In this document: positions 1 to 15,090 of the stretch, piece after piece
Layout of the letters: each line of letters opens with the position of its first letter
How positions within the stretch are numbered: the first letter of the stretch is position 1
The notes under the pieces: model-generated
Told to the model about the DNA's origin: nothing
Databases searched by the model: none
The model's input: only the letters and a program-made list of their open reading frames with translations
Assembly (NCBI GenBank): GCA_043822125.1
Contig: JBDRCB010000006.1
Coordinates: 45,662-109,661, forward strand
Source of the DNA: an archaeon
GTDB taxonomy: Archaea > Nanobdellota > Nanobdellia > Pacearchaeales > GW2011-AR1
Direction: 5' to 3'
DNA length: 64,000 bases
Translations under genes and position numbers: made by a program

Positions 1-468
1 ATAATTCATCCTGATGAAATTGATTTGCATAATGGTAACGGAACAAAATTAAATGAAGTTGAAGCTTTTGCCTGTGCAGAAATAATCAACAGAATAAACA
101 AAGGATACAAGAAAATTAGGGTTGTCCTTGACTGCCCGTCGACGAGTATTATAAAATGGCGGGATTTTTTAAAAACAAAAATAAAAAATTTATCAAATTT
201 AGAGATAATCTGCGAGCACAAAGCAGATAAAAATCACACTGCTGTTTCTGCTGCTTCAATCATAGCAAAGAGCATAAGAGAAAAAGAAATGGACAAACTT
301 AAAGAAAAATTCGGAGGGGAAATCGGCTCTGGTTATACATCTGACCCTCTAACACAAAAGTTTCTCGAAAAATTTGCAGACAAGCACAAGGATTCTGGAA
401 TTTTCAGAAAGACATGGATAACATGGAAAAGTGCCTATAAAAATTTAGGACAGAGAAAGTTGTTCTAA
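1..468 (+). CDS. rnhB: Ribonuclease HII, C-terminal part (5' end lies upstream of the window)
   Basis: Frame 1 is open from base 1. HKADKNHTAVSAASIIAKSIREKEM and GSGYTSDPLTQKFL motifs are typical of archaeal RNase HII. Confidence 0.85.
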   Translation: MIHPDEIDLHNGNGTKLNEVEAFACAEIINRINKGYKKIRVVLDCPSTSIIKWRDFLKTKIKNLSNLEIICEHKADKNHTAVSAASIIAKSIREKEMDKLKEKFGGEIGSGYTSDPLTQKFLEKFADKHKDSGIFRKTWITWKSAYKNLGQRKLF

Positions 469-500
469 ATCTTTAAAAATCCCTCTCACTTTTTCTCCTT

Positions 501-3359
501 ATGAGTTATATAAAAAAATTGGTGATGCACGGATTCAAAAGTTTTCCGAAAAAAACAGAAATACCTTTTACCCCAGGAATAAATGTTATTTTAGGTCCGA
601 ACGGAAGCGGAAAATCAAACATTTCCGACGCACTTTGTTTTGTCCTCGGACGCCTTTCAATAAAATCCATGCGCGCAGCAAAAGCAGGCAACTTAATATT
701 TCTCGGAACAAAATCCTATGCTCCGTCAAAAGAAGCGAGTGTGGAAATTGTATTCGACAATTCAAAAAACACTTTTTCAATTAATAATCGTGAGATTTCA
801 ATAAAAAGAATTGTGAGAAAAAATGGACAGAGTATATATAAAATCAACAATGAAACAAAAACCCGTCAGGAGATTTTAAGTTTGCTGGCACAAGCAGGAA
901 TAGATCCAAATGGATTTAACATCATTTTGCAGGGGGAAATTCAAAATTTTGTGAGAATGCAGCCAGATGAAAGAAGAAAAGTAGTTGAAGAGGTTTCAGG
1001 AATTTCTGTTTATGAATACAGAAAAGAGAAATCTCTGAAAGAGCTTGACAGGACAGAAGAAAAATTAAAAGAAGTTTTAGCGATTCTCAGAGAGAGAACT
1101 ATTTATCTTAATAATCTTGAAAAAGAGCGCCAACAGGCACTGCGATTTAAAAAATTAGAACAGGATGCGAAGAAATTCAAGGCAAGTATAATTTATCATG
1201 ATCTAACTAAGAAAAAAAAAGAAAAAGAATCAATAGAATCTGAAATTGAAAAAAAGAATAAGGAAATCGAGAAGATAAAAAAAGAAGTAGCAAATATAAG
1301 TACTACAATAGTATCATTGAATTCAAAGATAGATTCTATAAACTCAAGCATCCAAAAATCTGCTGGAGTTGAGCAGGAGAAGCTTAATAATGAAATAGCA
1401 AATCTGAGGGCAGAGCTTGCCGGCATGTATGTTAAGTCAGAAAATCTTGAGAAAAAACTCTCTATTATTTTAAAGCAAAAAACAGAACTTGAAAAATTTA
1501 TTTTTGATATAGAGAATTCTTTAAAAGAACTGCAGAAAGAATCTCCGTCTTCAATAAAAAAAGAAAAAGAACTTCGCGAAAAAAAACAAGAGCTTGAAAA
1601 ACTCGAGGAGAGAAGGAAGAAATTTTACATGGCGAAGTCAGAATTAAAATCCCTCTTAGAAAGAATTCAGGATAAAAAAAACCTGTTGCAGAACTACTCC
1701 AACGAGTCTGACTTCCTGCTTCGGCAGATAAATTCTGTTTCTCAGAAGCTGTTCGACAAAAAGACAAGTAGCGAAAAACTTAATGCATTAAAATCCTCTC
1801 TTTCTGAAAAAAAAGCACTTCTGGAGATAATTAATAAAAGAGAAATAGAACTTGAGAAAATTTCTTATGCACATGAATCTGAAGTTGAGAATCAGGATAA
1901 AATTATTGAAAAAATTTCAAAAATAGATATTTGTCCTCTATGCAAAAGCAAAATCACAAAAGAACATCTGCACAGCATACAAAGTGAAATTTCTCCAAGG
2001 GTGAAGTTCCTGAAGAAAGAAATTGAAAATGCAGACAGAGAGCTGAATGGGATTTACAAGAAACGCGAAGTGCTCGCAGGAGAGATTGAAAAAATAAGCA
2101 ATGAAATATTAGATAGAGAATCTGATATTGTTAAGCTGTCTGGAATCGAGGAAAAAAAAGAACAGATTAAATCTCTTCATGAAAAAATAACAAACCTGAA
2201 AAAAGAATTGGCAGAGCTTGAAAAAAAGAAAAAAAATCTTGAAGAGAGCTTTAGTGATAATTTTAACATAGAACAGAAATATGAAACTGCGAGAATTGAA
2301 GTACAGGAGATTTCCTTAAGAAGCGAAGAGACAATTAATTCTGAAATATCATTCAAACAGAGGGAATTTGAGAGAGCTAAAATTTCACTTAAACAGCTTT
2401 TAAGAGAAGAGGAAGATCTGAGTGAAGAATTTGAAGAGATGAAAAAAGAAATATCTAAAAAAGAAGATTTGCTGGAAAAAAAGAAAATTAAAGAAGAGGA
2501 GCTGAGCAGTAGATTTAAACAGCTTTTTTCAGAGCGCGACGCTGTTCATAAAAAAATCAGGGAGTGTGAATATGATTCGTCTGAGAAAAATAATTTTATT
2601 TACAGAATTGAGCAGGAGACAAATAATTTCAAAATTGAAAAAGCTCGCGTTGGTGCGGAAATAGAGAACTTTGAGATTGAAATGCTCAGTTTCCCGAATG
2701 TTGAAATTTTAAAATTAGGAAGGGATATCTTAATTCAGAAGCTGAGCAACACGCAAGAGATTCTCTCCAGAATCGGCTCTGTAAATCTGCGGGCATTGGA
2801 GGTTTATGATTCAATAAAGAAAGAATATGACGCGGTTAAAGAAAAAGTGGAGGTAATTTCAAAAGAAAAAGGGAGTGTATTGAAAATTATCAGCGAGATT
2901 GATATTAAGAAAAAAAAGACTTTTATAAAAAATTACAATGAATTAAATGAGATTTTTTCGAGGAATTTTTCCCAGCTCAGCACAAAAGGGCAGGTCTCAC
3001 TTGAACTTGAAAACAAGAAAGATCCTTTTGAAGGAGGGGTTAATATAATTGTAAAGACAGGACACGGAAAGTATTTTGATGTTAAGTCACTTTCAGGAGG
3101 GGAGCAGACACTGGTTGCACTTTCACTTATCTTCGCAATACAGGAATTAAAGCCGTATTATTTTTATATTCTCGACGAAATTGACGCTGCACTTGACAAA
3201 AGAAACTCCGAGCGCTTAGCAGGACTGCTGAAAAAATACATGCAGAAAGGGCAGTATATAATTATCACTCACAACGACGAAGTAATCACTAACGCGACAA
3301 ACCTTTACGGGGTTAGTATGCATGAAGGTATTAGTAAAATTATTAGTTTGAAAATTTGA
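501..3359 (+). CDS. smc: SMC-family chromosome segregation ATPase, short form (952 aa) with a central CxxC instead of a recognisable hinge
   Basis: N-terminal Walker A GPNGSGKSNISDALCFVLG, QGEIQNFVRMQPDERRKVVEEVSGISVY, and C-terminal LSGGEQTLVALSLIFAIQE..YILDEIDAALD. Long K/E-rich coiled coil, with CPLC at nt 1932-1943. Confidence 0.85.
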   Translation: MSYIKKLVMHGFKSFPKKTEIPFTPGINVILGPNGSGKSNISDALCFVLGRLSIKSMRAAKAGNLIFLGTKSYAPSKEASVEIVFDNSKNTFSINNREISIKRIVRKNGQSIYKINNETKTRQEILSLLAQAGIDPNGFNIILQGEIQNFVRMQPDERRKVVEEVSGISVYEYRKEKSLKELDRTEEKLKEVLAILRERTIYLNNLEKERQQALRFKKLEQDAKKFKASIIYHDLTKKKKEKESIESEIEKKNKEIEKIKKEVANISTTIVSLNSKIDSINSSIQKSAGVEQEKLNNEIANLRAELAGMYVKSENLEKKLSIILKQKTELEKFIFDIENSLKELQKESPSSIKKEKELREKKQELEKLEERRKKFYMAKSELKSLLERIQDKKNLLQNYSNESDFLLRQINSVSQKLFDKKTSSEKLNALKSSLSEKKALLEIINKREIELEKISYAHESEVENQDKIIEKISKIDICPLCKSKITKEHLHSIQSEISPRVKFLKKEIENADRELNGIYKKREVLAGEIEKISNEILDRESDIVKLSGIEEKKEQIKSLHEKITNLKKELAELEKKKKNLEESFSDNFNIEQKYETARIEVQEISLRSEETINSEISFKQREFERAKISLKQLLREEEDLSEEFEEMKKEISKKEDLLEKKKIKEEELSSRFKQLFSERDAVHKKIRECEYDSSEKNNFIYRIEQETNNFKIEKARVGAEIENFEIEMLSFPNVEILKLGRDILIQKLSNTQEILSRIGSVNLRALEVYDSIKKEYDAVKEKVEVISKEKGSVLKIISEIDIKKKKTFIKNYNELNEIFSRNFSQLSTKGQVSLELENKKDPFEGGVNIIVKTGHGKYFDVKSLSGGEQTLVALSLIFAIQELKPYYFYILDEIDAALDKRNSERLAGLLKKYMQKGQYIIITHNDEVITNATNLYGVSMHEGISKIISLKI

Positions 3360-3368
3360 GATATTAAA

Positions 3369-3977
3369 ATGAATAAAAAAGAACTCCTTGCCTCTCTTGA
3401 GAAGAAATTTCCAAAAAAAATAGTTGATGCTTTTTTAAAAGTAAAGAGAGAAGATTTTGTTATTGATTCTATGAAGTCAAGAACTTATGAAGACACTGCT
3501 CTTCCCCTCGGGCATGGACAGACAATCTCCCAGCCATATACAATTGCAGTCATGCTCTCGCTTCTTGATGTGAAGGACTCTCAGAAAATTCTAGAGGTCG
3601 GTTCTGGATGTGGTTATGTTCTCGCACTGCTTTCTGAATTGACTGGAAAAAAAGGAAAAGTTTTTGGAGTTGAATTAGTCAAAGAACTTGCAGAACAATC
3701 GAAAAAAAATTTGTATGAATATTCAAATGTGAAAGTTTATAATAAAAATGGTGCAGATGGACTGGAGGAGCATGCTCCTTTTGACAGGATTTTAATCAGT
3801 GCAGCATGCAGAGAAGTCCCTGAAAGACTGCTTGCACAGCTGAAAGACCACGGAATTCTCGTTGCTCCTGTTGGCTCTCGGTATGAGCAGACACTTGTAA
3901 AAATACAAAATAAAAAAAATAATTTTATAACAAAAGAAAAAATATCGGGATTTATTTTTGTCCCGTTTATAGAATAA
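3369..3977 (+). CDS. pcm: Protein-L-isoaspartate O-methyltransferase
   Basis: GHGQTISQPYTIAVML and the SAM-binding ILEVGSGCGY motif. Length 202 aa. Confidence 0.9.
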   Translation: MNKKELLASLEKKFPKKIVDAFLKVKREDFVIDSMKSRTYEDTALPLGHGQTISQPYTIAVMLSLLDVKDSQKILEVGSGCGYVLALLSELTGKKGKVFGVELVKELAEQSKKNLYEYSNVKVYNKNGADGLEEHAPFDRILISAACREVPERLLAQLKDHGILVAPVGSRYEQTLVKIQNKKNNFITKEKISGFIFVPFIE

Positions 3978-4015
3978 AGGAGAAAGTAATAAAAATAAAA
4001 AAATAAAAAAAGAAA

Positions 4016-5242
4016 TTAATAGTAACTTTCTCCGAATTCTTCTGTTTTTTCAGGTTTCTTTCCTAAAAGAACAATCAAGACTACCAGCAATACAATAAAG
4101 ATTATTGCCAGAACAATTGCAAGTATAACAGCTGGATTTGTTATTGAAGTACCCTCTACTTTTGCATTAAGAGTCACGCTCTCAACAAGCTGTTCTCCTG
4201 AGAAGAAATTCACATTGAATTTATATTCTCCTTCTTCACTCGCACTAACACTTATTTTAATGTTCTTGCTTGAACCTGCTGGAACAGCTACTAATGTGCT
4301 GTCTGTACTTGAAGAAATTCCTCCAGAAGATTCTGTAATTACTCTGTATACTTTCAGCTTGTTTGTTGGGTTGACAACCAGAATGTCATATTCTGCATTC
4401 TCTCCAACAGCAAAAGTTTTTCCTGTGCTATATACAACAACATTTTCTGAAAAGTCATTTTCAACAGCAATTTGTATTGTCCTGCTTTTTACAACATCGT
4501 TGTTTTCAGCTTCTACTTCAATAGTGTAAGTTCCTGCTTTAGCATCATAAGGAATATTCACATAGAATCTTCCTGTTGCTGTGTCTTCATCGTCATCACA
4601 TTCGTCTTCAGAGCATCTTGTTGTAATTATATTCCTGAAGTAAGATGTTTTTTCAATTCCTAATGCTGGAATTTTCAAAGTTACATACAAGTCTTCAAGT
4701 TCATTGTATCCAATGTTCTTGATCACAACATCAACTGGCAACATTTCACCAGCCCCTACTTTCTGCTCTGTGCTTATTGACATAAAGTCAAGATTGTATG
4801 AAGGTCTCTGAACTCTGAGAGTAATCTCAGGATGTTCTGTTTTGAAGTCGCCGTTCCAGATTTTTATATTAAGGGCAAGGTCTTCACTGACTTCGTCGTT
4901 AAGTTCATATGGAACTTTTAGAGTCAATGTTTTTTTGTATCTTTTTCCTTCCTCAATAACAAATCTTGAAGTGACTGCATCAACATCTGTTTTGTCTCCT
5001 TCAATTTCTACCCTCATCCTTACATCTGAAGCATCTTCAAGTGCGATGAATTCTACTTCTACTGTAACTGTCTCTCCGGCAGTAACACTAATATCTTCAT
5101 TGCTGTATTCATACAAATCATTGATTCTGACTTCCTGAATTCCTGCAATTTCACTTGTTGCTGCGCTGATTGTTGACACTAGAAATAAAGCACTTACAAT
5201 CGATAGGAAAAAAACCATAAGGTTTTTTGTTTTCATTTCCAT
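4016..5242 (-). CDS. Secreted cell-surface protein (N-terminal signal peptide, beta-rich repeats, C-terminal TM anchor), possible S-layer/CARDB-like protein
   Basis: N-terminus MKTKNLMVFFLSIVSALFLVSTISA. C-terminal hydrophobic AVILAIVLAIIFIVLLVVLIVLL followed by a basic tail. Confidence 0.5.
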   Translation of the reverse strand: MEMKTKNLMVFFLSIVSALFLVSTISAATSEIAGIQEVRINDLYEYSNEDISVTAGETVTVEVEFIALEDASDVRMRVEIEGDKTDVDAVTSRFVIEEGKRYKKTLTLKVPYELNDEVSEDLALNIKIWNGDFKTEHPEITLRVQRPSYNLDFMSISTEQKVGAGEMLPVDVVIKNIGYNELEDLYVTLKIPALGIEKTSYFRNIITTRCSEDECDDDEDTATGRFYVNIPYDAKAGTYTIEVEAENNDVVKSRTIQIAVENDFSENVVVYSTGKTFAVGENAEYDILVVNPTNKLKVYRVITESSGGISSSTDSTLVAVPAGSSKNIKISVSASEEGEYKFNVNFFSGEQLVESVTLNAKVEGTSITNPAVILAIVLAIIFIVLLVVLIVLLGKKPEKTEEFGESYY

Positions 5243-5374
5243 TTTAAAATTTAATTGCCAGAAACTTTGTTTTCTGGTATTTTTGAAATACTAAACTTCT
5301 TTATAAATTTTACTATTGTTGTAATTTTATAGTTACAAAGAATTTACCCTAATGTCAGGGACACTCAGTGAATG

Positions 5375-6154
5375 CTATTCGTCTTTACATATTTCTAGTC
5401 CTTTTGCAGAATCTTCGACAGGAGAAGGGCTCTCATTTATTATAATTATTTTTTTATTTTTTGGTAGATTTTTAAACAACCATTTCCAATATTTTTCTTC
5501 TGTTCTTTTGTGATTTTTTTCTCCTTTTACTCCATATTCAATTCCTGAAAAATGACAGTGCCATTCTTTTTGTGGAAATAATTTTTTTATTTTCTCCCAT
5601 TCTAATTCTTTTTCCCTAGCCAGTATATGTGCAAAATCAAGGCAGAAACCGCATCCAGTGTCTTTTACTAATTCTGCTATTTCCTCTGCACTCCCAAAAA
5701 CATTTGTCTTCCCAGTTGTTTCAGGTGCAAGTTTTGGAGTGTAATTTTTTTCTCTTCTTGCTTTCTGCAGTTTTTCAATTTCAGATTTTATTTTTCTATA
5801 TGTCTGTTCTTTTGTGCTCTTTCCATAATAGCCAGGATGAAAGACAATTTTTTCAGCATCAAGCCATGTCCCGACTTCAAGGCATCTCAGAATTCTTTTT
5901 TTGCTTTTCTCAGCAATTTCTTTTTTATCAGAATTTAGATTTATCCAGTAAGGTGCGTGGATACTTAATTCAACATCATATTTTTTCGCAGATTTTTTTA
6001 TTTTCAGAGCATCTTCTTTGTTTTTAATGTAAATTCCATAAGTGAATGCAATCTCGCATGCTTTCAAGCCGAGTTTGTGATATTCCTCAAGATTTTCAAC
6101 TGCTTCTTTCACACCCCCGAGCCCTGCAGGCCCGAATTTTATCTCCATTGTCAC
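5375..6154 (-). CDS. nfo: Endonuclease IV-like / xylose isomerase-like TIM-barrel protein
   Basis: The spacing of SIHAPYWINLNS, VFHPGYYG, CLDFAHILA and HCHFSGIEYG resembles the metal-binding motifs of AP endonuclease family 2. Confidence 0.65.
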   Translation of the reverse strand: MTMEIKFGPAGLGGVKEAVENLEEYHKLGLKACEIAFTYGIYIKNKEDALKIKKSAKKYDVELSIHAPYWINLNSDKKEIAEKSKKRILRCLEVGTWLDAEKIVFHPGYYGKSTKEQTYRKIKSEIEKLQKARREKNYTPKLAPETTGKTNVFGSAEEIAELVKDTGCGFCLDFAHILAREKELEWEKIKKLFPQKEWHCHFSGIEYGVKGEKNHKRTEEKYWKWLFKNLPKNKKIIIINESPSPVEDSAKGLEICKDE

Positions 6155-6996
6155 AGGAATTCAAGAGGAGATTTAGTGTTTATTAAATTTGGAGATGCAA
6201 TGTGAGTATAAACTAATGTTGTTTCAGGAGATTTGTGCCCCAACATTGCTTGCACATTTGTGATATCATATCCATTCTCAATTAGATGAGTTGCAAAGCT
6301 ATGTCTTAATATATGTGGAGAGATTTCTTTCCAATTTTTTAGTTTAGCTTTTTTTGAAGCATTTTTGATTATTCTTTGGATGCTCCGCATATGATATTTT
6401 TTATTCCTATTCGACTGAAATAAAGAATCTTCTCCATTTAGATTTTCAATTTCAATTAAGTTTTTTATCTTCTCCCTGACAATTTTAGACAAAATGATTA
6501 ATCTGTCTTTTCCACCTTTGCCGTTCCTTACATAGCCGTAATTTTTATCTAATTTTAAATCTTTTAATTTCATATTTAATAGTTCTGAAACTCTTAAACC
6601 AGAACCATAAAGAAATTCAATCATTAATCTGTGCTTCCAATTAGAAATTGAATTCAGCAATTTTCTAATTTCTTCTTTTGACAAAACAGAAGGAATTTTT
6701 TGCGGAGTTTTGGAGTATTTGATGTCAACCCACATCCTTCGATTCATCACATCTTCAAAAAGGAATTTTATTGCCATATGAGCAACATTTAGGGTATTTC
6801 CAGAAAGATTTTGATTATTTAACTTTTGTAGAAATGCATTAACATCTTTTTTTGAGATATATCTTAAATCTTTTCTGCTCCAATTTAGAAATCTTCTAAT
6901 CCAATAAATATATGATTTCGCAGTTCTCTCAGAATGCCTGTATCTTTTACATTTTGCCTTAACTGCTAATTCTATATCAGAAGGGAAATATACCAT
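6151..6996 (-). CDS. Tyrosine site-specific recombinase, Xer/IntI-like (281 aa)
   Basis: Catalytic signature YGSGLRVSEL (R), GKGGKDR (K), HILRHSFATH (HxxR), LGHKS and LVYTHI (Y). The N-terminal RYRHSERTAKSYIYWIRRF is SAM-like. The stop overlaps the nfo-like start (ATGA). Confidence 0.85.
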   Translation of the reverse strand: MVYFPSDIELAVKAKCKRYRHSERTAKSYIYWIRRFLNWSRKDLRYISKKDVNAFLQKLNNQNLSGNTLNVAHMAIKFLFEDVMNRRMWVDIKYSKTPQKIPSVLSKEEIRKLLNSISNWKHRLMIEFLYGSGLRVSELLNMKLKDLKLDKNYGYVRNGKGGKDRLIILSKIVREKIKNLIEIENLNGEDSLFQSNRNKKYHMRSIQRIIKNASKKAKLKNWKEISPHILRHSFATHLIENGYDITNVQAMLGHKSPETTLVYTHIASPNLINTKSPLEFL

Positions 6997-7115
6997 AATA
7001 GACTATAAAATATATTTATAAAAATGTAAGTTTTAACTTTAGAGTTAAACAAGTATTTCTTGATACTGATACAAAATTTAATTCTTTCACAGCCTAATAC
7101 AATTATTTTTATCAA

Positions 7116-7143
7116 AATTCGCATAAAGTCTGTTAAATCCAAT
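7116..7143. repeat. dif-like Xer-type site S0: AATTCGCATAA-AGTCTG-TTAAATCCAAT
   Basis: 11-6-11 architecture with inner ATAA / TTAA arm ends. TCGCATAA resembles the GCGCATAA arm of E. coli dif. It lies about 120 bp upstream of the recombinase ATG. Confidence 0.55.
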
Positions 7144-7148
7144 TGCCC

Positions 7149-7646
7149 CTACGCGCGCTCTAAGAATTTTTGAATTAAATGGGCTTTATGCTCACGATTT
7201 GTTTCTGCATAAGTTTGTGCTTCTGCCTCTAAAGTAAAACAAGGAATTTCAATATCATCAATTTTCTTCTTTGTTAATTTGTTTGCTAATAATTTGCTAA
7301 CATACTCGCCCGTATCTCTTTCTCCTAAAATTTGAACTTCTACATTTCCAATATCTAATTTGACTTCCCAACCGGGCTCGTCTGTTAGAGGTTTCAATTC
7401 CTTGACGGCAGAAGCATTATATTCTGAAAAGATTTCTCGCATTTTTTCCAAATCTTTTAACTGCACAACAATATCCAAATCGTGAGGGCTAACATCCATT
7501 CCTTGTAATTGCATATTTGTACTTCCGATTAAAGCCCATTTAATTTTATTTTCATTCATTAATTTGTGAATTATTTTGATTGCTTTTTTGAAGTTTTCAT
7601 TTATCATATATTCAAAATAATTCTTATTATTTAATAACTTTACCAT
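7149..7646 (-). CDS. Nucleotidyltransferase-fold protein (module cargo)
   Basis: ALIGSTNMQLQGMDVSPHDLDIVV matches the GS..(n)..DxD pattern of the pol-beta-type nucleotidyltransferase superfamily. Confidence 0.55.
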   Translation of the reverse strand: MVKLLNNKNYFEYMINENFKKAIKIIHKLMNENKIKWALIGSTNMQLQGMDVSPHDLDIVVQLKDLEKMREIFSEYNASAVKELKPLTDEPGWEVKLDIGNVEVQILGERDTGEYVSKLLANKLTKKKIDDIEIPCFTLEAEAQTYAETNREHKAHLIQKFLERA

Positions 7647-7725
7647 AACGCGCGCTTCGGGGCAACTCCTTCGCCTTCGGCTCGGTCACGCCTTGCAGGC
7701 TCTCACAAAATCAAAGATTTTGTTA

Positions 7726-7753
7726 GGAGGATTTAACAGCGATTAGTTTCAAT
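7726..7753. repeat. dif-like site A1: GGAGGATTTAA-CAGCGA-TTAGTTTCAAT
   Basis: Same 11-6-11 layout and orientation as the other copies. It is preceded by the CACGCCTTGCAGGCTCTCAC block (7687-7706). Confidence 0.5.
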
Positions 7754-7810
7754 TCTGGGTTTGCCTTTCAGGCACGCTTCGCTACCGAAAATTCTAATGT
7801 TGTTATCTTC

Positions 7811-7868
7811 GTTTAACGCTCCAATGCGAAATTAAAATTATCGCATAACATCGCTGATTAAACGAAAT
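7811..7868. repeat. Two decayed dif-like copies with no ORF between them (TTTAACGCTCCAATGCGAAATT and TCGCATAACATCGCTGATTAAACGAAATT)
   Basis: They share TCGCATAA with site S0 and the ..AAC..GAAATT tail with the consensus. Indels break the 6-nt spacer. Confidence 0.35.
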
Positions 7869-7901
7869 TGCTGAAAAATAAAAATAGTAGAAACGAAAGA
7901 T

Positions 7902-8438
7902 TTAATCTTTTGGAAGAATTCTTATTCTGTCTGCTCTCTTATTTCCTGCTTGAGTTTCAGGTGTAAAATAAGTTTCATTAGGGTAATCTCTATTCGCTGA
8001 ACCACCAAACCAATTTCCATGTCTCATGTTTCCAGAAGGAAAGCTTATTCTTGTTCCTTCTCCGATAATTGCATCAAGAGCTTCTTTTTTAATTGGAATT
8101 CCTGGTTTTCCATATGCTTTACCTTTTCCAAATTCATCTCCATCAATAACTGAAACTCCAATGATTCTTCCGTCATCGGTTTGAACTTTAAGAACATATT
8201 TTGATTCTAATTTTACTGTTTCATTAGAATAACTCATTAAACCATTCCAGTTTGGAACAGGCGATAATGTGTTTTGATAACTCTCTGCGAGAACGGTTCC
8301 AACAATTTGTCTTTTTCCTTCTTCAAATAATCTTTCATATTTTCTATCGGCATTTATCATACTGGAACCTGCAAAGTATGCGCCTGTAGCGATTCCTAAT
8401 GAAACCAATCCACCGATGACTTTATTTTTCAAACTCAT
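7902..8438 (-). CDS. Hypothetical membrane-anchored protein (module cargo)
   Basis: 178-aa ORF with an N-terminal hydrophobic segment VIGGLVSLGIATGAYFAG. No recognisable family. Confidence 0.45.
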   Translation of the reverse strand: MSLKNKVIGGLVSLGIATGAYFAGSSMINADRKYERLFEEGKRQIVGTVLAESYQNTLSPVPNWNGLMSYSNETVKLESKYVLKVQTDDGRIIGVSVIDGDEFGKGKAYGKPGIPIKKEALDAIIGEGTRISFPSGNMRHGNWFGGSANRDYPNETYFTPETQAGNKRADRIRILPKD

Positions 8439-8598
8439 ACTAAACAGAATAAACCAATACTTTATAAACCTTTCGGTTCTTTTACCACTTGAGAGTTAAT
8501 AATTTATTTTTCAACAATTACGATAACAACGAATTTTCGGCGAGCCCCGAACTTCTCCCTTCGGTCGACCACGTTGCACTCTCCTCCTTTCAGTCGTC

Positions 8599-8626
8599 GG
8601 GAGACATAACAGGAATTATATCCAAT
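8599..8626. repeat. dif-like site B: GGGAGACATAA-CAGGAA-TTATATCCAAT
   Basis: This is the best copy. The minus strand reads ATTGGATATAA-TTCCTG-TTATGTCTCCC, and TTATGT matches the XerD-side arm start of E. coli dif. It is preceded by CACGTTGCACTCTCC (8570-8584). Confidence 0.6.
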
Positions 8627-8645
8627 TTGGGCAAATAATTTATTC

Positions 8646-8858
8646 TTAAGTATTATGCCTATAAATTATATATTCAAAAGAGGGCTCTTTAAGAACTATT
8701 TCTTTAATTTCATTTGGAGAAGTATATTTTATCTTTAATTCATAACCTTTCTTAAAGTGCCCCATAGTATGATGTCTTTTAACATCTTCTAAATTCATTT
8801 TATTTTTAGAGATCCCTGTTGATGTAATGATTTTCTCAATTTGTTCTATAAGATCCAT
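8646..8858 (-). CDS. Hypothetical 70-aa protein (module cargo)
   Basis: ORF bounded by the perfect 10-bp inverted repeat TTTGGGCAAA (8626-8635) / TTTGCCCAAA (8892-8901). No family recognised. Confidence 0.4.
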   Translation of the reverse strand: MDLIEQIEKIITSTGISKNKMNLEDVKRHHTMGHFKKGYELKIKYTSPNEIKEIVLKEPSFEYIIYRHNT

Positions 8859-8956
8859 ATAAAATTGTTTAAATACCTTAATTTAAAAATGTTTGCCCAA
8901 ACTCAAAATCCTTAAGATTTTGCCACGCTGCGCTCTCATTTCGCTTCGCTCCATTC

Positions 8957-8984
8957 GGGAGATATAACACGAATTATATTCAAT
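8957..8984. repeat. dif-like site C: GGGAGATATAA-CACGAA-TTATATTCAAT
   Basis: 24 of 28 positions are identical to site B. It is preceded by CACGCTGCGCTCTC (8924-8937). Confidence 0.6.
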
Positions 8985-8997
8985 TGAACTTGGCGCG

Positions 8998-9450
8998 CTA
9001 TTGATGCATTACAATAATTTCTTTTAGAAGTGGACCTTTCTTTCCGAAAGGTAAATCAAACCATCTTTCTTCAAACCATTCAATTTTATGTTTTTTAACT
9101 TCTCCAAAATGTGGATCTGCCAAAATAATTTTATCTTTGTCAAAGCCTACAACCACAGAATAATGCCCTGCTTCTTCAGGAGAAAACCAATCAACTATAA
9201 CAGGAATTCCTTTTTTTACTAATTTTTTCACTTCGTTAATTGAGGAATTCTGTTTTACATATCCCTTGAAGCCAAATTCTTCTGCGGCTTTGACTATATT
9301 TTCTTCATCGCAACCTCTTGTTCTACTGCTTTTTGTTGTTTTTGCTAAATAATTTTCTGATTTATTTATTCCATAAGCAGATAGAACCATCTTTAATGAG
9401 GCAGGTCCACAATATCCTTTTGATTGTTTGAATGGTTTGAGTTTAATCAT
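8998..9450 (-). CDS. Peptidase C39-like (papain-fold cysteine peptidase) domain protein (module cargo)
   Basis: QSKGYCGPASLKMVLSAYG (catalytic Cys context) and GHYSVVVGFDKDKIILADP (His) match the C39-like pattern. Confidence 0.6.
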   Translation of the reverse strand: MIKLKPFKQSKGYCGPASLKMVLSAYGINKSENYLAKTTKSSRTRGCDEENIVKAAEEFGFKGYVKQNSSINEVKKLVKKGIPVIVDWFSPEEAGHYSVVVGFDKDKIILADPHFGEVKKHKIEWFEERWFDLPFGKKGPLLKEIIVMHQ

Positions 9451-9474
9451 AATAATATTAAAAGAAATTATTAG

Positions 9475-9484
9475 TATATAAAAA
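9475..9484 (-). promoter_or_regulatory. Candidate TATA box (minus strand TTTTATATA) for the C39-like gene
   Basis: AT-rich TTTATATA-like element centred about 30 nt upstream of the ATG at 9450. It lies between the ORF and the right inverted-repeat arm (9495-9505). Confidence 0.35.
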
Positions 9485-9557
9485 TGTTGTTTACGCGCGC
9501 CAAGTCCAACTCTAAAATTTTCCTTCGGAACGTTGCACTAAAAATCAATCCCTAACG

Positions 9558-9585
9558 GGAGAAACTAACAGGAATTCCCAGCGTA
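9558..9585. repeat. Hybrid dif-like site D1: GGAGAAACTAA-CAGGAA-TTCCCAGCGTA (left arm and spacer conserved, right arm unrelated)
   Basis: The spacer CAGGAA is identical to site B. It is preceded by AACGTTGCACT (9529-9539). The right arm lacks the TTATATyCAAT consensus. Confidence 0.45.
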
Positions 9586-9872
9586 GATAAATCGACCAAA
9601 TTTAAAATTTCATTTTTTGCCCGCCCGAGATAGAAGAAAAAAGCCCGCAGTCCTTCGGACAAATAGCTTTTTGCCGTCGGCAAAAATAGAAAAACTTCTT
9701 TTATCCGACCAACGAAAACCGAAATGAAATTTTTCAAATTTCACATAACCAAGGATAAAAGGTTCGTTTCACTCACGCAAATTTTTCATTGATAAGGGGA
9801 GTTCCTAATCCTTCGGATAATTTGTCGGCTTACGCCGAAAATGTTTTAAGGTTTATTTTTATAATTCTTTTA

Positions 9873-10694
9873 ATGAGTAATGAAATAAAAATAAAAAAGA
9901 AAACAATAAAGAATGTTTCTTATTTTGTAATCGGAATTCTTGTTTTATTGTTTCTATTCTGGCCAACACAGAATAACGAAGATTATAATCAGCCAGATAA
10001 ATATAATCAAATTATTCTTGATGAATCAGAAAATACAGGAAACGAATTAAATGAAGATAATTTTGACAAAATAGAAGAATTGCATTGGGGAAAAATCCCT
10101 ATAACATATAAATTTGAAAATGAAAATACAGAAAGACAGCTTAATTTGACAAGAAATGCTTTCTCTAAGATTGAGGAAGAAACAGGAGGAATTGTGACGT
10201 TTGAAGAAGTTTCAGAAAACCCAGATATTTCAATTTATTTCAAATCCTCAGAATATAATTCTGGTAGCGAGCATACTGTTGCAGATGCCCTTATTTCCGA
10301 AGTCGATGATTCAAGGAATTTAATTTTAAGAGGAGAATTAAATTTTTATGGGCAAGGTTTTGTCTGTAACACTGGTTACCCTGCTTTAGAAGTTCATGAA
10401 ATTCTTCATTTATTTGACATTCCCCATAACCCTCTAACTAAAAGTATAATGAGTCCATACACTGCCGAATCCTCATCTAGATGTGAAATAACAGAAATCG
10501 ATTCGGAATATATTTCTTGTTTGAGATACATATATTCCAATGGTGAAATTGAAGGAAATTGTGATTTTCCAAATGTTATTCACGAAAAAGAACCCGAATA
10601 TGTTTGCGATGAAGGTTGGTATCCTGTTGCGGGAACAGATTATTGTTGTCCTGAACCCAATATGAGAATTGTTGATGATTATTGCGAATATTAA
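9873..10694 (+). CDS. Secreted/membrane-anchored zinc metalloprotease (HExxHxxxxxH), Cys-rich C-terminus
   Basis: HEILHLFDIPHN zincin motif. N-terminal TM segment VSYFVIGILVLLFLFW. The start was moved to the ATG at 9873 because the upstream part of the track ORF runs through repeat sequence. Confidence 0.6.
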   Translation: MSNEIKIKKKTIKNVSYFVIGILVLLFLFWPTQNNEDYNQPDKYNQIILDESENTGNELNEDNFDKIEELHWGKIPITYKFENENTERQLNLTRNAFSKIEEETGGIVTFEEVSENPDISIYFKSSEYNSGSEHTVADALISEVDDSRNLILRGELNFYGQGFVCNTGYPALEVHEILHLFDIPHNPLTKSIMSPYTAESSSRCEITEIDSEYISCLRYIYSNGEIEGNCDFPNVIHEKEPEYVCDEGWYPVAGTDYCCPEPNMRIVDDYCEY

Positions 10695-10955
10695 AAACAA
10701 AAGAACCCCTCATTTTCTTTTTAGAAAAAAGAAATAAAAAAGGGCAGGCTTTTTTCTCGAATTATTTGGTCGTCGGAAACAACCATCCTCCTTTCCACCC
10801 TGAAAGAAAAATTAAAACTCACGAGGGGCTTTTTTAGCCTAGCTCGTGCCTCACTATTTCAGAGGTTCAAACCGAAAATATTATTAACAACGCCCTCTTT
10901 TGTTATATTAACATAATCCCAGGTGATCCGAAAGGGTTGCCTGATGCTTTAAAAA

Positions 10956-11480
10956 ATGAAATTTACAATTGTATTTATTGATGAGGTTATTTATCTTTTG
11001 TTTCTAAATTTTTTGGAAAAGGCAAACCACTAAAATATAAGATAGAGGTTTTTGCAAAAAACCTTGCAGAATCAAAGGGATTAGAATGTAAAAAAATTTA
11101 TTTTTATACTGCACCTCCTTATCAAGACTCAATGCCGACAAAAGAGGAGAATAGAAGAAAAGCTAGTTATGATAAATTTAATAATTGTTAGAGAAGGAAG
11201 ATGTCAAAAAATTGACAAGATTTATCAACAAAAAGGAGTAGATACCCTTTTAACAATTGACTTATCAAGAATTCCTAAAAAAGAAGGGATTTTTGATATT
11301 ATAGTTTTGACTTCAGATACAGATTTTGTTCCAATTATTAATGATTTATTTGAAGACGGAATAAATGTTATTCTCGCTTACTTTACAGATAGAAAAAGAA
11401 AGTCTGGACTTTCTCTTTCAAACTATTTGTGGAAGGCATGTAAAAATAAGATAAAAATTAAAAAAGAATTTTTTTCTTAA
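10956..11480 (+). pseudogene. NYN/LabA-like domain gene disrupted by two frameshifts
   Basis: MKFTIVFIDE (frame 0), then GYLSFVSKFFGKGKPL...YFYTAPPYQDSMPTKEENRRKASYDKFNNC* (frame 2, 10985-11191), then VREGRCQK..QQKGVDTLLTIDL..VLTSDTDFVPII (frame 0, 11169-11480). Confidence 0.6.
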
Positions 11481-13803: not shown

Positions 13804-15090
13804 TTATTCTTTTTTCTTTGTTATTTCAGTGCACATGCCTGCTGCAACTGTTGCACCAGCGTCCCTGACTGCGAATCTGCTCATAAAAGGATTTTCTTTT
13901 TGTGTTTCCAAACATAAGTTTCCTCTTGGTTGAATTTTAACTTTTGCAGTGTCTCCGTTTTTCAAGAAGTCAGGCTTTTCTTTAATAACCTGTCCTGTTC
14001 TTGGATCAATCTGTGCGATTAATTCAATAAACTGGCACGGAACCTGTGCAGTGTGAACATGAAATACTGGTGTGTATCCTTTTGCTAATACAGTCGGATG
14101 ATTTATTACAGTGATTGTCGCAATAAATTCTTCAACAACTGGAACAGGCTTTCCAGCTTCGCAGATAACATCTCCTCTTGCAATGTCCTTTTTTCCAACA
14201 CCTCTTATATTTATTCCAACATTGTCTCCTGCAACTGCTTCAGGCATAGATTCATGATGCATTTCAATTGTTTTTACTTCTCCTGTAATCCCCTTTCCTG
14301 TTCTTCCAGGAAGAACAATAACTTTCTGCCCTAATTTCATAACACCTGTTTCAATCTTGCCGACTGGAACTGTTCCAATCCCTGTTATTTCATAAACATC
14401 CTGACAGGGCATCCTCATTGGTAAATTAGTAGGTAGTTCTGGTGCAGGAAATAAATCTAACTGCTCAAGAATTGTTGGACCTTTATACCAAGGCATTTTA
14501 TCTGATTTTTTTGTAATATTCTCTCCTTTTAATCCAGAGCATGCAATAAATGTAGTTTTCTCAGGACTTATTCCAACACCCTGCAGTAATTTCCCAACAT
14601 CTTCTTTAACTTTTTTGTATGTTTCTTCTTTATAATCAACAGCATCCATTTTATTTATAGCAATACACAGATTTTTAACACCCATTGTTCTCAGCAACCA
14701 TAAGTGCTCTGTTGTTTGTGGCTGGACACCTGCTGGTGCAGCAATAACCAAAAAAGCAGCATCTGCCTGTGAAGCACCTGTAATCATGTTCTTGACAAAA
14801 TCTCTGTGCCCTGGCGCATCAATAATTGTAATCTGCCATTTTTGCGTCATTATCTTTTTATAAGACAAGTCAATAGTAACCCCTCTTTCTCTTTCTTCTC
14901 TTATTTTATCCATAATATAAGCAAATTCAAAACCTGCTTTACCATATTTTGCAGCCTCATCTTTTAGCTTTTTCATTTCTTGTTCAGAAACAGCACCGCT
15001 CTGAAAAAATAACTGTCCAACTATTGTTGATTTACCAGCGTCGACGTGTCCGACGAATACAATATTCATGTTTGGTTTTTCTTTAGCCAT
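13804..15090 (-). CDS. tuf: Translation elongation factor 1-alpha
   Basis: GHVDAGKST, DAPGHRDF and NKMD GTPase motifs. 428 aa. Confidence 0.95.
   Translation of the reverse strand: MAKEKPNMNIVFVGHVDAGKSTIVGQLFFQSGAVSEQEMKKLKDEAAKYGKAGFEFAYIMDKIREERERGVTIDLSYKKIMTQKWQITIIDAPGHRDFVKNMITGASQADAAFLVIAAPAGVQPQTTEHLWLLRTMGVKNLCIAINKMDAVDYKEETYKKVKEDVGKLLQGVGISPEKTTFIACSGLKGENITKKSDKMPWYKGPTILEQLDLFPAPELPTNLPMRMPCQDVYEITGIGTVPVGKIETGVMKLGQKVIVLPGRTGKGITGEVKTIEMHHESMPEAVAGDNVGINIRGVGKKDIARGDVICEAGKPVPVVEEFIATITVINHPTVLAKGYTPVFHVHTAQVPCQFIELIAQIDPRTGQVIKEKPDFLKNGDTAKVKIQPRGNLCLETQKENPFMSRFAVRDAGATVAAGMCTEITKKKE

Follow-up and report, generated by a model that had tools for sequence, protein, structure and literature searches.

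Inverted-repeat arms as the inner stem of long hairpins framing the cassettes of an integron-like array next to a DPANN xerA gene

Why are neighbouring genes in this archaeal locus each enclosed by an inverted repeat of their own, and why do these repeats abut dif-like sites? An earlier note on the window (here, the whole 64,000-nucleotide stretch of DNA that was analysed) described such repeats and compared them with folded attC sites and the attP hairpin of CTX phage. The arms are real: in an integron-like array next to a DPANN xerA gene, every cassette is framed by a long hairpin, and the arms make up its inner stem; no description of a cassette arrangement of this sort, hairpin-framed and beside an archaeal XerA gene, was found in the literature. 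The reading that we favour, with a probability of roughly 0.55, is an integron-like gene-cassette array running on the archaeal XerA/dif system, in which the arms are the inner stem of a whole-cassette hairpin. The structure is well supported, the recombination reaction is proposed from sequence, and the earlier interpretation as a whole is partly supported.

The array lies upstream of a gene encoding a XerA-like tyrosine recombinase of 281 aa (6151..6996, minus strand; Pfam Phage_integrase plus a SAM-like N domain), in the same orientation as this gene, which is the only Xer gene within the 64-kb window. The best solved relative of the recombinase is XerA of P. abyssi (4A8E, 1e-41); the archaeal model NF040815 (recomb_XerA_Arch) scored 212 bits against a cutoff of 220, and TIGR02249 scored 207 bits in two stretches against a cutoff of 265. 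In the alignment to the integron integrase VchIntIA (2A3V), chain residue 197 is followed directly by residue 237, the query having nothing to match residues 198-236, so the IntI-specific insertion (I2 helix region) is absent. Directly upstream of xerA, at least five cores are present within 2.5 kb, and each cassette between them carries one accessory gene with a core on each flank. The core is 28 bp long, consisting of imperfect inverted 11-bp arms and a 6-bp spacer; its consensus was built from 278 cores. For comparison, the dif site of P. abyssi is ATTGGATATAA TCGGCC TTATATCTAAA (PMC2958812); the left arm of the core at 8597-8625 matches it at 11/11 positions.

The proximal, attI-like core (7114..7142, minus strand) reads TTGGATTTAA CAGACT TTATGCGAA TTTT on the minus strand and is without a structured spacer. 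Related sites are located 140-162 nt upstream of xerA in three loci (L001, L010, and L012), of which only L001 and L010 have its conserved centre and right arm in the form CA(G/A)ACT + TTAnnCGAA. Cassette 1 (7143..7665, minus strand) carries a nucleotidyltransferase-like ORF (7149-7646; Pfam Aminoglyc_resit, 3.9e-7), which probably starts at an internal ATG. All arm sequences quoted earlier were found at the positions given for them, and the arms of this cassette (7143-7158 and 7650-7665) are complementary at 14/16 positions, as the earlier note had it; their stem reads as closed by G..A on the minus strand. Inter-cassette element 1 (87 nt, 7666..7752, minus strand) is composed of a structured spacer and a dif-type core (7724-7752; 31.8 bits with the PWM), and its GAG end stands immediately before the arm, like the elements of related loci. 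This well-formed core was apparently left out of the earlier reading.

Cassette 2 (7753..8550, minus strand) is nested. Its outer arms (7753-7765 and 8538-8550) pair at 10/13 positions, and the outer shell is homologous to positions 3103-3642 of locus L009, whose arms match at 12/13. Both pairs of inner arms reported before are present (7868-7882 with 8503-8517, 14/15; 7890-7899 with 8470-8479, 9/10) and surround an ORF of 178 aa (7902-8438), but the dif-like site to which they had been assigned is a degenerate attI-type core with a 9-nt central region (7842-7867), overlapping an attI-type right arm TTATGCGAT (7840-7848) and situated inside the larger cassette. Of the five modules listed earlier, one is a nested composite. 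Element 2 (75 nt, 8551..8625, minus strand; core 8597-8625, which reads ATTGGATATAA TTCCTG TTATGTCTCCC on the minus strand with the preceding A included) is followed by cassette 3 (8626..8901, minus strand), where the 10/10 pairing of 8626-8635 with 8892-8901 around a 70-aa ORF (8646-8858) was reproduced.

Element 3 (82 nt, 8902..8983, minus strand; core 8955-8983) forms a number of hairpins, a GCA mini-hairpin and CAAAATC/GATTTTG among them. In cassette 4 (8984..9509, minus strand), which carries a C39-like peptidase (8998-9450) with its own TATA box within the arms, the 11/11 pair 8988-8998 and 9495-9505 extends to 8984-8998 and 9495-9509 (14/15, the mismatch being a minus-strand G·T wobble), so that the arm abuts the core directly. 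Element 4 (9510..9584, minus strand) has a normal spacer, of Class I with the AGTGCAACG motif as in alignment A1, and a right half-site, while the left half-site of its core (9575-9584) is degenerate. The ORF-less interval (9598..9775, minus strand) contains the repeat described before (9598-9615 and 9722-9741), but the two sides are complementary only with a gap, the geometry is irregular, and on its other side the pair abuts a degenerate attI-type core at about 9742-9775; the right arm TTATGTGAA of this core (9740-9748) has one mismatch to the proximal-site arm. This interval is probably the decayed distal end of the array.

Terminal inverted repeats around a stretch the size of a gene normally point to a transposon, and in a window of 33% G+C short repeats are common, so the arms might belong to small transposons or MITEs inserted between tandem repeats, or be due to chance. 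A chance origin was ruled out by two controls. When 2,714 window positions were taken as pseudo-junctions, with an arm starting exactly there and a partner 60-1500 nt off, the arm scores at 7143 and 8626 were reached by only 1.3% of the pseudo-junctions and those at 8984 and 7868 by only 0.26%, giving a joint chance probability of about 1e-9. The same pattern was found in 138 related loci from Woesearchaeota, Nanoarchaeota, and Pacearchaeota, where perfect cassette-specific arms of 9-16 nt abut a conserved element of 55-99 nt on both sides and run right up to, and no further than, a XerA/dif core of the P. abyssi type (11-6-11). For 45% of the 271 cores, drawn from 140 sequences, an exact arm of 9 nt or longer ended precisely at the core, versus 5.3% at offset controls; for arms of 12 nt or longer the shares were 30% and 1.1%. 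The partner arm began 54-99 nt after the previous core, right after RAG, in 78 of 121 cases. In 20 loci, 58/58 cores lay upstream of xerA in the same orientation. The arms differ in nearly every cassette, with all four base-pair types at nearly every arm position, which agrees with the view that they are module-specific and not the ends of one transposon family. The transposon or MITE candidate was rejected, as family-wide terminal repeats and direct repeats flanking the arms (target-site duplications) are absent and no transposase is present; arms that are always zero-spaced against the core and the RAG end, and compensatory changes in homologous cassettes, also speak against it. We regard this explanation, in either form, as extremely improbable.

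The pairing is not confined to the arms. Over 167 adjacent core pairs, positions L3-L7 of the downstream core and positions 20-24 of the upstream core were Watson-Crick matched in 69-83% of cases, compared with 31-59% in shuffles; in 69 units picked by their arms alone, the variable half-site positions paired at 83-94% versus 32-70% when shuffled. This covariation collapses in controls slid by one column, and none was found within a single core or in the reverse pairing. Loci L037 and L132 share one cassette (92% identical, with identical arms), and their half-sites differ between the two loci, each pair being self-complementary (AGACATAA/TTATGTCT and TCATTTAA/TTAAATGA). In the window, the sequence shows such pairing around cassette 1, at 8/9 positions between the left half-site of the proximal core and the right one of core 7724-7752, and the half-sites flanking cassette 3 are complementary; in cassettes 2 and 4 (2/4) the half-sites are not matched.

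Folding is specific to one strand, judged from sequence patterns to be the minus strand of the window. The arm stem is closed by G..A in 28 of 68 cassettes (expected 8%, p = 8e-14), versus the mirror T..C closure in 2 of 68. "Empty cassettes" consist of a simple hairpin; the loops of hairpins read GAA, GCA, or GTTA, with GAA triloops predominant, and the loop ends of minimal hairpins are G..A in 9/16 and T..C in 0/16. The strand-specific signatures of selection are thus G..A caps, GNA and GNNA loops, and an invariant G·T. As G·T and A·C mismatches in stems are equally rare, wobble usage alone does not identify the strand. The structured spacer has compensatory changes in 9/9 predicted pairs. 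Folding energies were -32, -20, and -19 kcal/mol for closed composites versus -17, -14, and -10 for array-state junctions. The earlier suggestion that the arms close a stem around the spacer of about 90 nt containing the dif-like site needs to be revised accordingly: the arms do pair, but the loop side of their stem is the cargo, as shown by the position of the G..A cap, towards the cargo, and by the empty cassettes, which are simple hairpins. The site is also not left intact in the spacer, since pairing runs outward into both flanking dif half-sites; the half-sites are therefore double-stranded, and only the 6-nt central regions join successive folded units.

Sense-strand-specific folding and covarying spacer helices would also be expected of RNA, either as a long sense transcript in which each cassette sits in a processing stem, like archaeal pre-rRNA, or as structured small RNAs, one encoded by each element, with arm A as the 3' end that pairs with the far cassette end; by our reading, the TATA-like, AT-rich core arm could serve as a promoter, and T-runs are common after arm A. 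However, T-runs right after arm A would end the transcript before arm B, no family was matched in an Rfam search, and G·U pairs are scarce in the spacer alignment (2/126 cells). The GAA and GCA loops of three nucleotides, with C·G as the closing pair, are a DNA mini-hairpin motif rather than a favoured RNA loop; d(GCGAAGC) is reportedly such a hyperstable DNA mini-hairpin, from the work of Hirao et al. Cargo ORFs are 27 sense and 37 antisense, so more than half of the cassettes have antisense cargo, and the gap from arm to ATG is at least 31 nt, with TATA-like boxes inside the arms. Since cargo occurs in either orientation with its own promoter, the arms are not an mRNA feature, and the DNA-level role argued for in the earlier note is upheld. 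Folding at the RNA level is accordingly an improbable explanation. Single-strand DNA folding, like that of attC or CTX attP, is the best reading, as had been proposed, the evidence being the covariation and the strand-asymmetric G..A caps.

Homologous cassettes bear on how the units may move. A homologue of the C39 cassette occurs in loci L146 and L149 (about 90% identical) and keeps perfect 15/15 arms through a compensatory double change from C·G to A·T relative to the window. The similarity of the window to both loci stops where the left half-site gives way to the central region. In these loci the cassette is accompanied by its right half-site and spacer, but not by the left half-site and central region, which differ. 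Shared cassettes of this kind, including that of L037 and L132, occur in differing surroundings with their breakpoints at the core or within it, an indirect sign of movement by the host Xer. Loci L079 and L122, 99.4% identical, differ at six positions of one core, spread over both of its arms and the central region, and neither simple crossover model accounts for this pattern. In C39 homologues outside arrays ("naked"), neither arms nor cores were found.

On the favoured reading, a whole-cassette hairpin in an integron-like array, each unit on the xerA-coding (minus) strand runs from the right dif half-site TTAnnTnC through a structured spacer of about 30-75 nt with two to three covarying hairpins and an R-A-G end, then arm A (9-16 nt), G, cargo with its own promoter in either orientation, A, arm B, and the left dif half-site (A)TTGAAnnTAA at the unit end, the 6-nt core centre being the sole joint between units. 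The two arms, A and B, pair with each other; A(-2) and G(-1) are able to pair with core T2 and T1; and the left half-site that follows a cassette downstream is the complement of the right half-site on its upstream side. Everything on the 3' side, about 25 nt made up of arm B and the left half-site, is thus base-paired, with the spacer as a bulge on the opposite strand of the stem. When the minus strand becomes single-stranded, during replication or in an excised or imported cassette, each cassette may fold so that its two ends rebuild a complete duplex 11-bp XerA-binding arm, and folded neighbours with the 6-nt linker would mimic a dif core. XerA could then cleave after TAA at two successive cores and swap the ends, by which a unit would be excised or inserted with the crossover in the central region; the likely entry point for integration is the distinct site about 146 nt upstream of xerA, which lacks a structured spacer and is presumed duplex. 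The mode of action would resemble that of integron attC bottom strands or CTX attP(+), except that the folded substrate would present a sequence-specific Xer arm paired along its whole length; no IntI-specific insertion would then be required.

The same boundaries would also result from ordinary double-strand Xer recombination of the dif-module or IMEX type, with circles carrying one core integrated serially beside xerA, and with arms and spacer hairpins serving for accessory-protein binding, replication or transcription insulation, or small-circle stability. In favour of this, the core has the full 11-6-11 layout of a XerA site, the crossover falls in the central region, and a Xer-type recombinase acting on duplex dif-like cores would give identical cassette boundaries. 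P. abyssi XerA recombines duplex dif without partners, and flanking inverted repeats are reported for the dif sites of Thermococcales and M. stadtmanae (PMC2958812); the enzyme here is also without the insertion that IntI reportedly uses on single-stranded substrates (PMC7790495). Half-site complementarity could come in part from symmetric dif "dialects" carried by each circle. This explanation leaves unexplained the complementarity of unconstrained half-site positions across the cassette, the strand-specific G..A cap and GNA loops, and the covarying spacer helices. Moreover, central regions vary among the cores of one array, which would hinder a complete two-strand exchange, and in duplex form the outer triplet of the right arm reads as CCC, not the palindromic partner of ATT; only the folded form gives A-G-T there. 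We consider duplex recombination doubtful as an account of the locus.

We tentatively suggest, giving it somewhat less than an even chance, that DPANN archaea possess a second, independent kind of "integron", a cassette-capture platform in which an insertion-less XerA-type recombinase works on cassettes that fold as single strands and rebuild a canonical duplex dif arm from their own ends, and which also captures ordinary chromosomal genes with their promoters. If true, this would be an addition to the short list of cassette systems (integrons, dif modules), in a group whose gene exchange is little understood. The shift of integron integrases from double-strand to single-strand recombination is thought to have come about through an extra helix (PMC4792948, PMC7790495); a Xer/dif system handling folded single-stranded cassettes would be a living example of a step thought to underlie integron origin. 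With a helix-less recombinase tied to sites bearing clear marks of single-strand folding, Xer handling of folded DNA becomes testable. The C39 gene, both "naked" and as a cassette with its native promoter, offers a rare view of cassette birth. Related contigs frequently end just upstream of xerA, so assemblies may be broken by such arrays, which standard attC searches also seem to overlook.

The system in the window is not a canonical integron. Like integrons, it has a tyrosine recombinase gene with a proximal entry site and arrayed one-gene cassettes beside it, cassette ends that are mutually complementary (compare the integron TTRRRY / RYYYAA), strand-specific folding, and a crossover beside a conserved G|TT (here, as proposed, TG|TTA). 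Unlike integrons, its recombinase is without the IntI insertion, its site is a dif-type 11-6-11 core plus spacer instead of an R''-L''...L'-R' hairpin (AAC/GTT boxes) after the ORF, and its cargo is within the hairpin loop with the pairing partners at opposite cassette ends. Integron cassettes are mostly promoterless and co-oriented under a common promoter, whereas those here have their own promoters and mixed orientation, and the array, oriented like the recombinase gene, is found upstream of it, an orientation opposite to that of classical integrons. Ghaly et al. 2022 reported archaeal integrons in 75 integron genomes (PMC9668308); the array-bearing assemblies JAGVWT, JAHIWS, JAHJSW, and JAFCFX predate the download of that study and are absent from these 75 genomes, maybe through quality filtering.

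As in CTX phage attP(+) and IMEX, the element itself is without a recombinase and integration leaves dif-like sites on both flanks; in CTX, too, folding of single-stranded DNA brings two distant dif-like halves together into a duplex Xer site. The host here differs in being archaeal with a presumably single recombinase, XerA, the units are one-gene cassettes and not phages, arranged in arrays of at least four beside xerA, and each has a unique arm stem and a conserved structured spacer. The pdif modules of Acinetobacter are similarly small gene modules between Xer sites, in which module-proximal half-sites travel along and shuffling occurs through crossover in the 6-bp spacer, but pdif are inversely oriented XerC/XerD sites on Rep_3 plasmids (PMC13141974), whereas the cores here are chromosomal direct repeats of the one-recombinase type; hairpin arms, a structured spacer, and strand-specific features, none reported for pdif modules, are all present in the window. 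The archaeal chromosomal Xer/dif system of P. abyssi has the recombinase's closest relative and a nearly identical core (PMC2958812); there, a single dif per chromosome, away from xerA, serves dimer resolution, whereas here many tandem cores adjoining xerA separate accessory genes.

All five inverted-repeat pairs that the earlier note had described between 7143 and 9741 were present in the sequence where it had placed them. The first four match at 14/16, 14/15 plus 9/10, 10/10, and 11/11, while the fifth is complementary only with a gap. The fourth pair can be extended to 8984-8998/9495-9509 (14/15), so that the arm touches the neighbouring site directly. As a chance control, 2,714 positions of the same window were used as pseudo-junctions, and each arm had to start exactly at the junction, with its partner at a distance of 60-1500 nt. 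Only 1.3% of these positions scored as high as the arms at 7143 and 8626, and only 0.26% as high as those at 8984 and 7868. A chance origin of the arms is excluded; the alternative that they are transposon ends or chance matches is likewise excluded, and we give it almost no weight.

The map itself required revision. A well-formed core (an 11-6-11 XerA/dif-type site with left half-site, 6-nt central region, and right half-site) at 7724-7752 had apparently not been used, and the "site" at 7842-7867, though core-like, is a degenerate proximal-type core whose central region measures 9 nt. Both this site and the 7868/8503 arms lie inside a nested cassette (7753-8550), whose outer shell is homologous to positions 3103-3642 of the related locus L009. 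The other cassettes occupy 7143-7665 (cassette 1), 8626-8901 (cassette 3), and 8984-9509 (cassette 4, with the C39-like gene), and 9585-9790 contains decayed remains. Proximal-type right arms recur at 7840-7848 (TTATGCGAT, inside the array) and, among these remains, at 9740-9748 (TTATGTGAA, at the far end of the array), which suggests a past array duplication or fusion. An inverted, proximal-type core-like sequence of 22 nt (7170-7191; TTGAATTAAA TGGGCT TTATGC on the plus strand) is located 27 nt from the proximal core, to which it is 77% complementary (7121-7142), and falls within the cassette-1 ORF at its 3' end. Part of this sequence (7173-7188) pairs perfectly over 16 nt with 7530-7545, an inverted repeat in the same ORF; the core-like sequence may be a flip switch or a remnant.

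For comparison, 18 archaeal genome loci were collected via the recombinase and 120 metagenome stretches via the core pattern, and a position weight matrix detected 319 cores in them; a scan of viral contigs with the core pattern gave no match. Read on the xerA-coding strand (minus in the window), the structure of the repeated unit is well established and conserved in this set. Between cassettes lies an element of 54-99 nt, which begins with the core TTGAAnnTAA-TnnnTG-TTAnnTnnC, continues with CCGA, a spacer with small hairpins, and a GCA mini-hairpin motif (AGTGCAACG or GCGCAGCG), and ends with another hairpin and R-A-G. A unit thus comprises right half-site, spacer, RAG, arm A, cargo, arm B, and left half-site. 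Judged by sequence, the core with its preceding A is of the archaeal dif type: dif of P. abyssi reads ATTGGATATAA TCGGCC TTATATCTAAA (PMC2958812), and the window core at 8597-8625 reads ATTGGATATAA TTCCTG TTATGTCTCCC.

The array is firmly linked to xerA: in the 20 loci with both, every one of the 58 cores is upstream of this gene and has its orientation. In the window, xerA (6151-6996, minus strand, 281 aa) was identified as a tyrosine recombinase gene by structure and profile comparison; its closest solved structure is XerA of P. abyssi (4A8E, 1e-41), and it scores 212 bits with the NCBIfam XerA model, whose cutoff is 220. Relatives of the recombinase are found in MAGs of Woesearchaeota, Nanoarchaeota, and Pacearchaeota. 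A distinct proximal site (core 7114-7142) lies about 146 nt upstream of xerA, with central region CA(G/A)ACT, right arm TTAnnCGAA, and no structured spacer. Its form is common to two related loci (L001 and L010), with a looser version in a third (L012), and it is the analogue of attI.

The window is AT-rich (~33% G+C) and chromosomal, with three tRNA genes and an ORF at 13804-15090 that, by its translation, we take to be EF-1 alpha; close to the array, ARAGORN detected neither tRNA nor tmRNA. The AP endonuclease gene downstream of xerA showed no synteny in related loci, and no conserved chromosomal neighbourhood could be assigned to xerA on this basis. Many related contigs (L001, L004, L006, L013, L016, L018) stop a few hundred bases upstream of xerA, as if arrays break metagenome assemblies. 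Near 4 kb (within 1-8000), ~3 kb from the array, both GC skew and gene orientation change sign, as would fit a replication terminus or origin close to the dif-like sites, but the window contains several other such switches. The cargo ORFs of the window are of accessory type (nucleotidyltransferase-like, C39-like peptidase, and two without a family match), and exact-protein look-ups for cassettes 1 and 4 matched no record. After the decayed array end, a matrixin-like (M10) peptidase gene (9789-10694) lies on the opposite strand, followed at 10700-10960 by a GC-rich, hairpin-rich intergenic stretch with palindromic TTGTTATATTAACATAA.

Paired arms are a rule throughout the family. Of 271 cores, 45% have an exact arm of at least 9 nt that terminates precisely at the core (5.3% of offset control positions), and 30% have one of at least 12 nt (1.1% of offset controls). 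In 78 of 121 cases, the distance from the start of the previous core to the partner arm is 54-99 nt and the arm follows RAG immediately, so that cassettes are framed at zero spacing on both sides. Once extended, the arms are typically 13-16 nt long and nearly perfect. Only four weak cases in 319 had an element whose two sides were already joined by complementary arms, a configuration that would point to circles or insertions into palindromes. Cassettes with unrelated cargo (L002 3928-4722, L003 2591-4179, L008 5644-7077, and L038) have a common outer arm (TCGTCGTGT/ACACGACGA) and common terminal sequences of 60-70 nt. Within these sequences is a further stem, inside the first, that varies from genome to genome with complementarity kept (e.g. 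GGGGTCTCGTCGCC/GGCGACGAGACCCC versus GGGGATTGCCGCC/GGCGGCAATCCCC); these termini look like a reusable cassette "chassis".

Selection for pairing acts on one specific strand. In class I spacers, compensatory changes were found in 9/9 predicted pairs. The small-hairpin loops on the xerA-coding strand are most commonly GAA, followed by GCA, GTA, GATA, and GTTA, and the arm stem is closed by G..A on the cargo side in 28 of 68 cassettes (8% expected, p = 8e-14), whereas the mirror closure T..C occurs in two of the same 68. Short inter-core intervals contain "empty cassettes", the minimal set being plain 5-8 bp hairpins exactly between RAG and TT, and mini-cassettes with longer loops having stems of up to 9 bp; of 16 minimal hairpins, nine have a loop with G first and A last, and none has T..C. 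A duplex or protein-binding palindrome would not show such strand asymmetry, which argues for single-strand folding. Mismatches within the arms (one G·T versus one A·C) are too few to identify the strand. Runs of two to four elements, spaced only by minimal hairpins or ORF-less mini-cassettes, were observed at L073 1032-1225 (minus-oriented coordinates), L057 993-1321, and L127 4084-4161, indicating that units can exist, perhaps multiply, without cargo.

Complementarity also extends to the half-sites. A core folding as its own hairpin, left on right arm, was rejected (pairing 5.73 observed versus 5.86 shuffled), and covariation of the two half-sites within one core was not found. The two half-sites that flank a cassette, the left one from the downstream core and the right one from the upstream core, complement each other at their variable positions: 167 adjacent core pairs gave 69-83% Watson-Crick pairs (31-59% in shuffles), with seven different complementary dinucleotide combinations. 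Among 69 units chosen by their arms only, the values were 83-94% versus 32-70%, and this signal collapsed in slid-column controls. The reverse combination (upstream left with downstream right half-site) gave no signal. T2 and T1 of the core are potential partners of the conserved A-G that precedes arm A. Arm B and the left half-site (~25 nt), which form the 3' side of the unit, are therefore paired throughout, and the spacer is a bulge on the opposite strand. The same cassette (92% identical), with identical arms, occurs in two related loci, L037 and L132, whose half-sites are not the same although self-complementarity is retained in each pair. The half-site rule holds for window cassettes 1 and 3 but not for cassettes 2 and 4.

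We propose that each cassette folds on single-stranded DNA of the xerA-coding strand. The folded ends would form a complete duplex 11-bp XerA arm (TTAnnTnC plus A-G-T opposite ATTGAAnnTAA), and folded neighbour units joined by a 6-nt linker would imitate a dif core. XerA might then cleave after TAA at two successive cores and swap the ends, releasing or inserting a unit, with the proximal site, taken to act as duplex, as entry point. Closed composites from window cassettes have predicted folding energies of -32, -20, and -19 kcal/mol, compared with -17, -14, and -10 for array-state junctions. According to GC skew, the folding strand would be the lagging-strand template here, a weak suggestion. 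Ordinary duplex Xer recombination at these dif-type cores, with the hairpins in another role, seems unlikely to us. The outer triplet of the duplex right arm is CCC, which is not the partner of ATT, so a near-symmetric arm is supplied only by the fold; in addition, central regions differ among cores of one array, a variation easier to reconcile with single-strand exchange than with complete two-strand exchange.

An RNA-level role of the hairpins is less likely than duplex recombination, and we consider it quite improbable. The cargo ORF has sense orientation in 27 cassettes and antisense orientation in 37, and TATA-like boxes lie in the stretch of at least 31 nt that separates the arm from the ATG. 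Both observations indicate that the arms are not an mRNA feature; the view that the arm of the C39-like gene lies outside its promoter and acts at DNA level was thereby borne out. Three-nucleotide GNA loops closed by C·G, reportedly a hyperstable DNA mini-hairpin motif (Hirao et al.), favour DNA over RNA without proving it. An Rfam scan of 6900-11000 at permissive thresholds returned only two sub-threshold chance matches.

The C39 protein has hundreds of relatives, and its gene was compared between the window (8984-9509), L146/L149, and ten further loci (L140-L145, L150, L151, L154, L156). In L146 and L149, the gene (88% identical protein) is a cassette ~90% identical in DNA to that of the window, and its arms (TTGGAATTGGCGCGC/GCGCGCCAATTCCAA) are perfect (15/15): one C·G pair of the window is replaced by A·T through changes on both sides, and where the window has a G·T wobble these loci have G·C. 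Downstream, similarity of both loci to the window ends at the boundary of left half-site and central region; upstream, L146 and L149 have right half-site and spacer in common, while left half-site and central region differ. Both breakpoints place the crossover in the central region; cassette boundaries lie in the core. Five other genomic contexts have the homologue (protein identity 75-88%) as an ordinary gene that lacks cores and arms, though its promoter is recognisably similar. Paired arms are kept in homologous cassettes but absent from non-cassette homologues: they belong to the cassette system and not to the gene. The ordinary chromosomal gene stands twice beside a prolyl-tRNA synthetase gene, and the cassette retains ~45 nt of its promoter region. 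From these sequences, the C39 cassette looks like a captured gene plus promoter, a snapshot of cassette birth.

Crossovers deduced from shared cassettes gave a mixed picture, in which most cases fit the central region and L037/L132 and L079/L122 need extra events. The arrays of L079 and L122 are 99.4% identical over 4.5 kb, with six differences in one 29-nt core (L079 247-275; left arm, central region, and right arm) and a second cluster at L079 2403-2420. Cores seem to be hot spots of change, and no simple crossover model accounts for this pair.

No description of the present system was found in the literature searched. Clusters of attC without IntI have been reported in some Pacearchaeales and Woesearchaeales (Ghaly et al., PMC9668308), and none of six array-bearing assemblies was in that genome list (0/6, compared by list), though the reported clusters may overlap with the present system. 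Unlike integrons, the system has no contiguous attC, its cassettes are neither co-oriented nor promoterless, and its recombinase lacks the IntI-specific insertion, which is skipped when the protein is aligned to the Vibrio integron integrase. The sites of dif modules are inverted, whereas those described here are direct. By their defining tests, the system falls outside the integron, CTX attP, and dif-module classes, while it would work like integron attC and CTX attP(+) and, like dif modules, is bounded by Xer half-sites.
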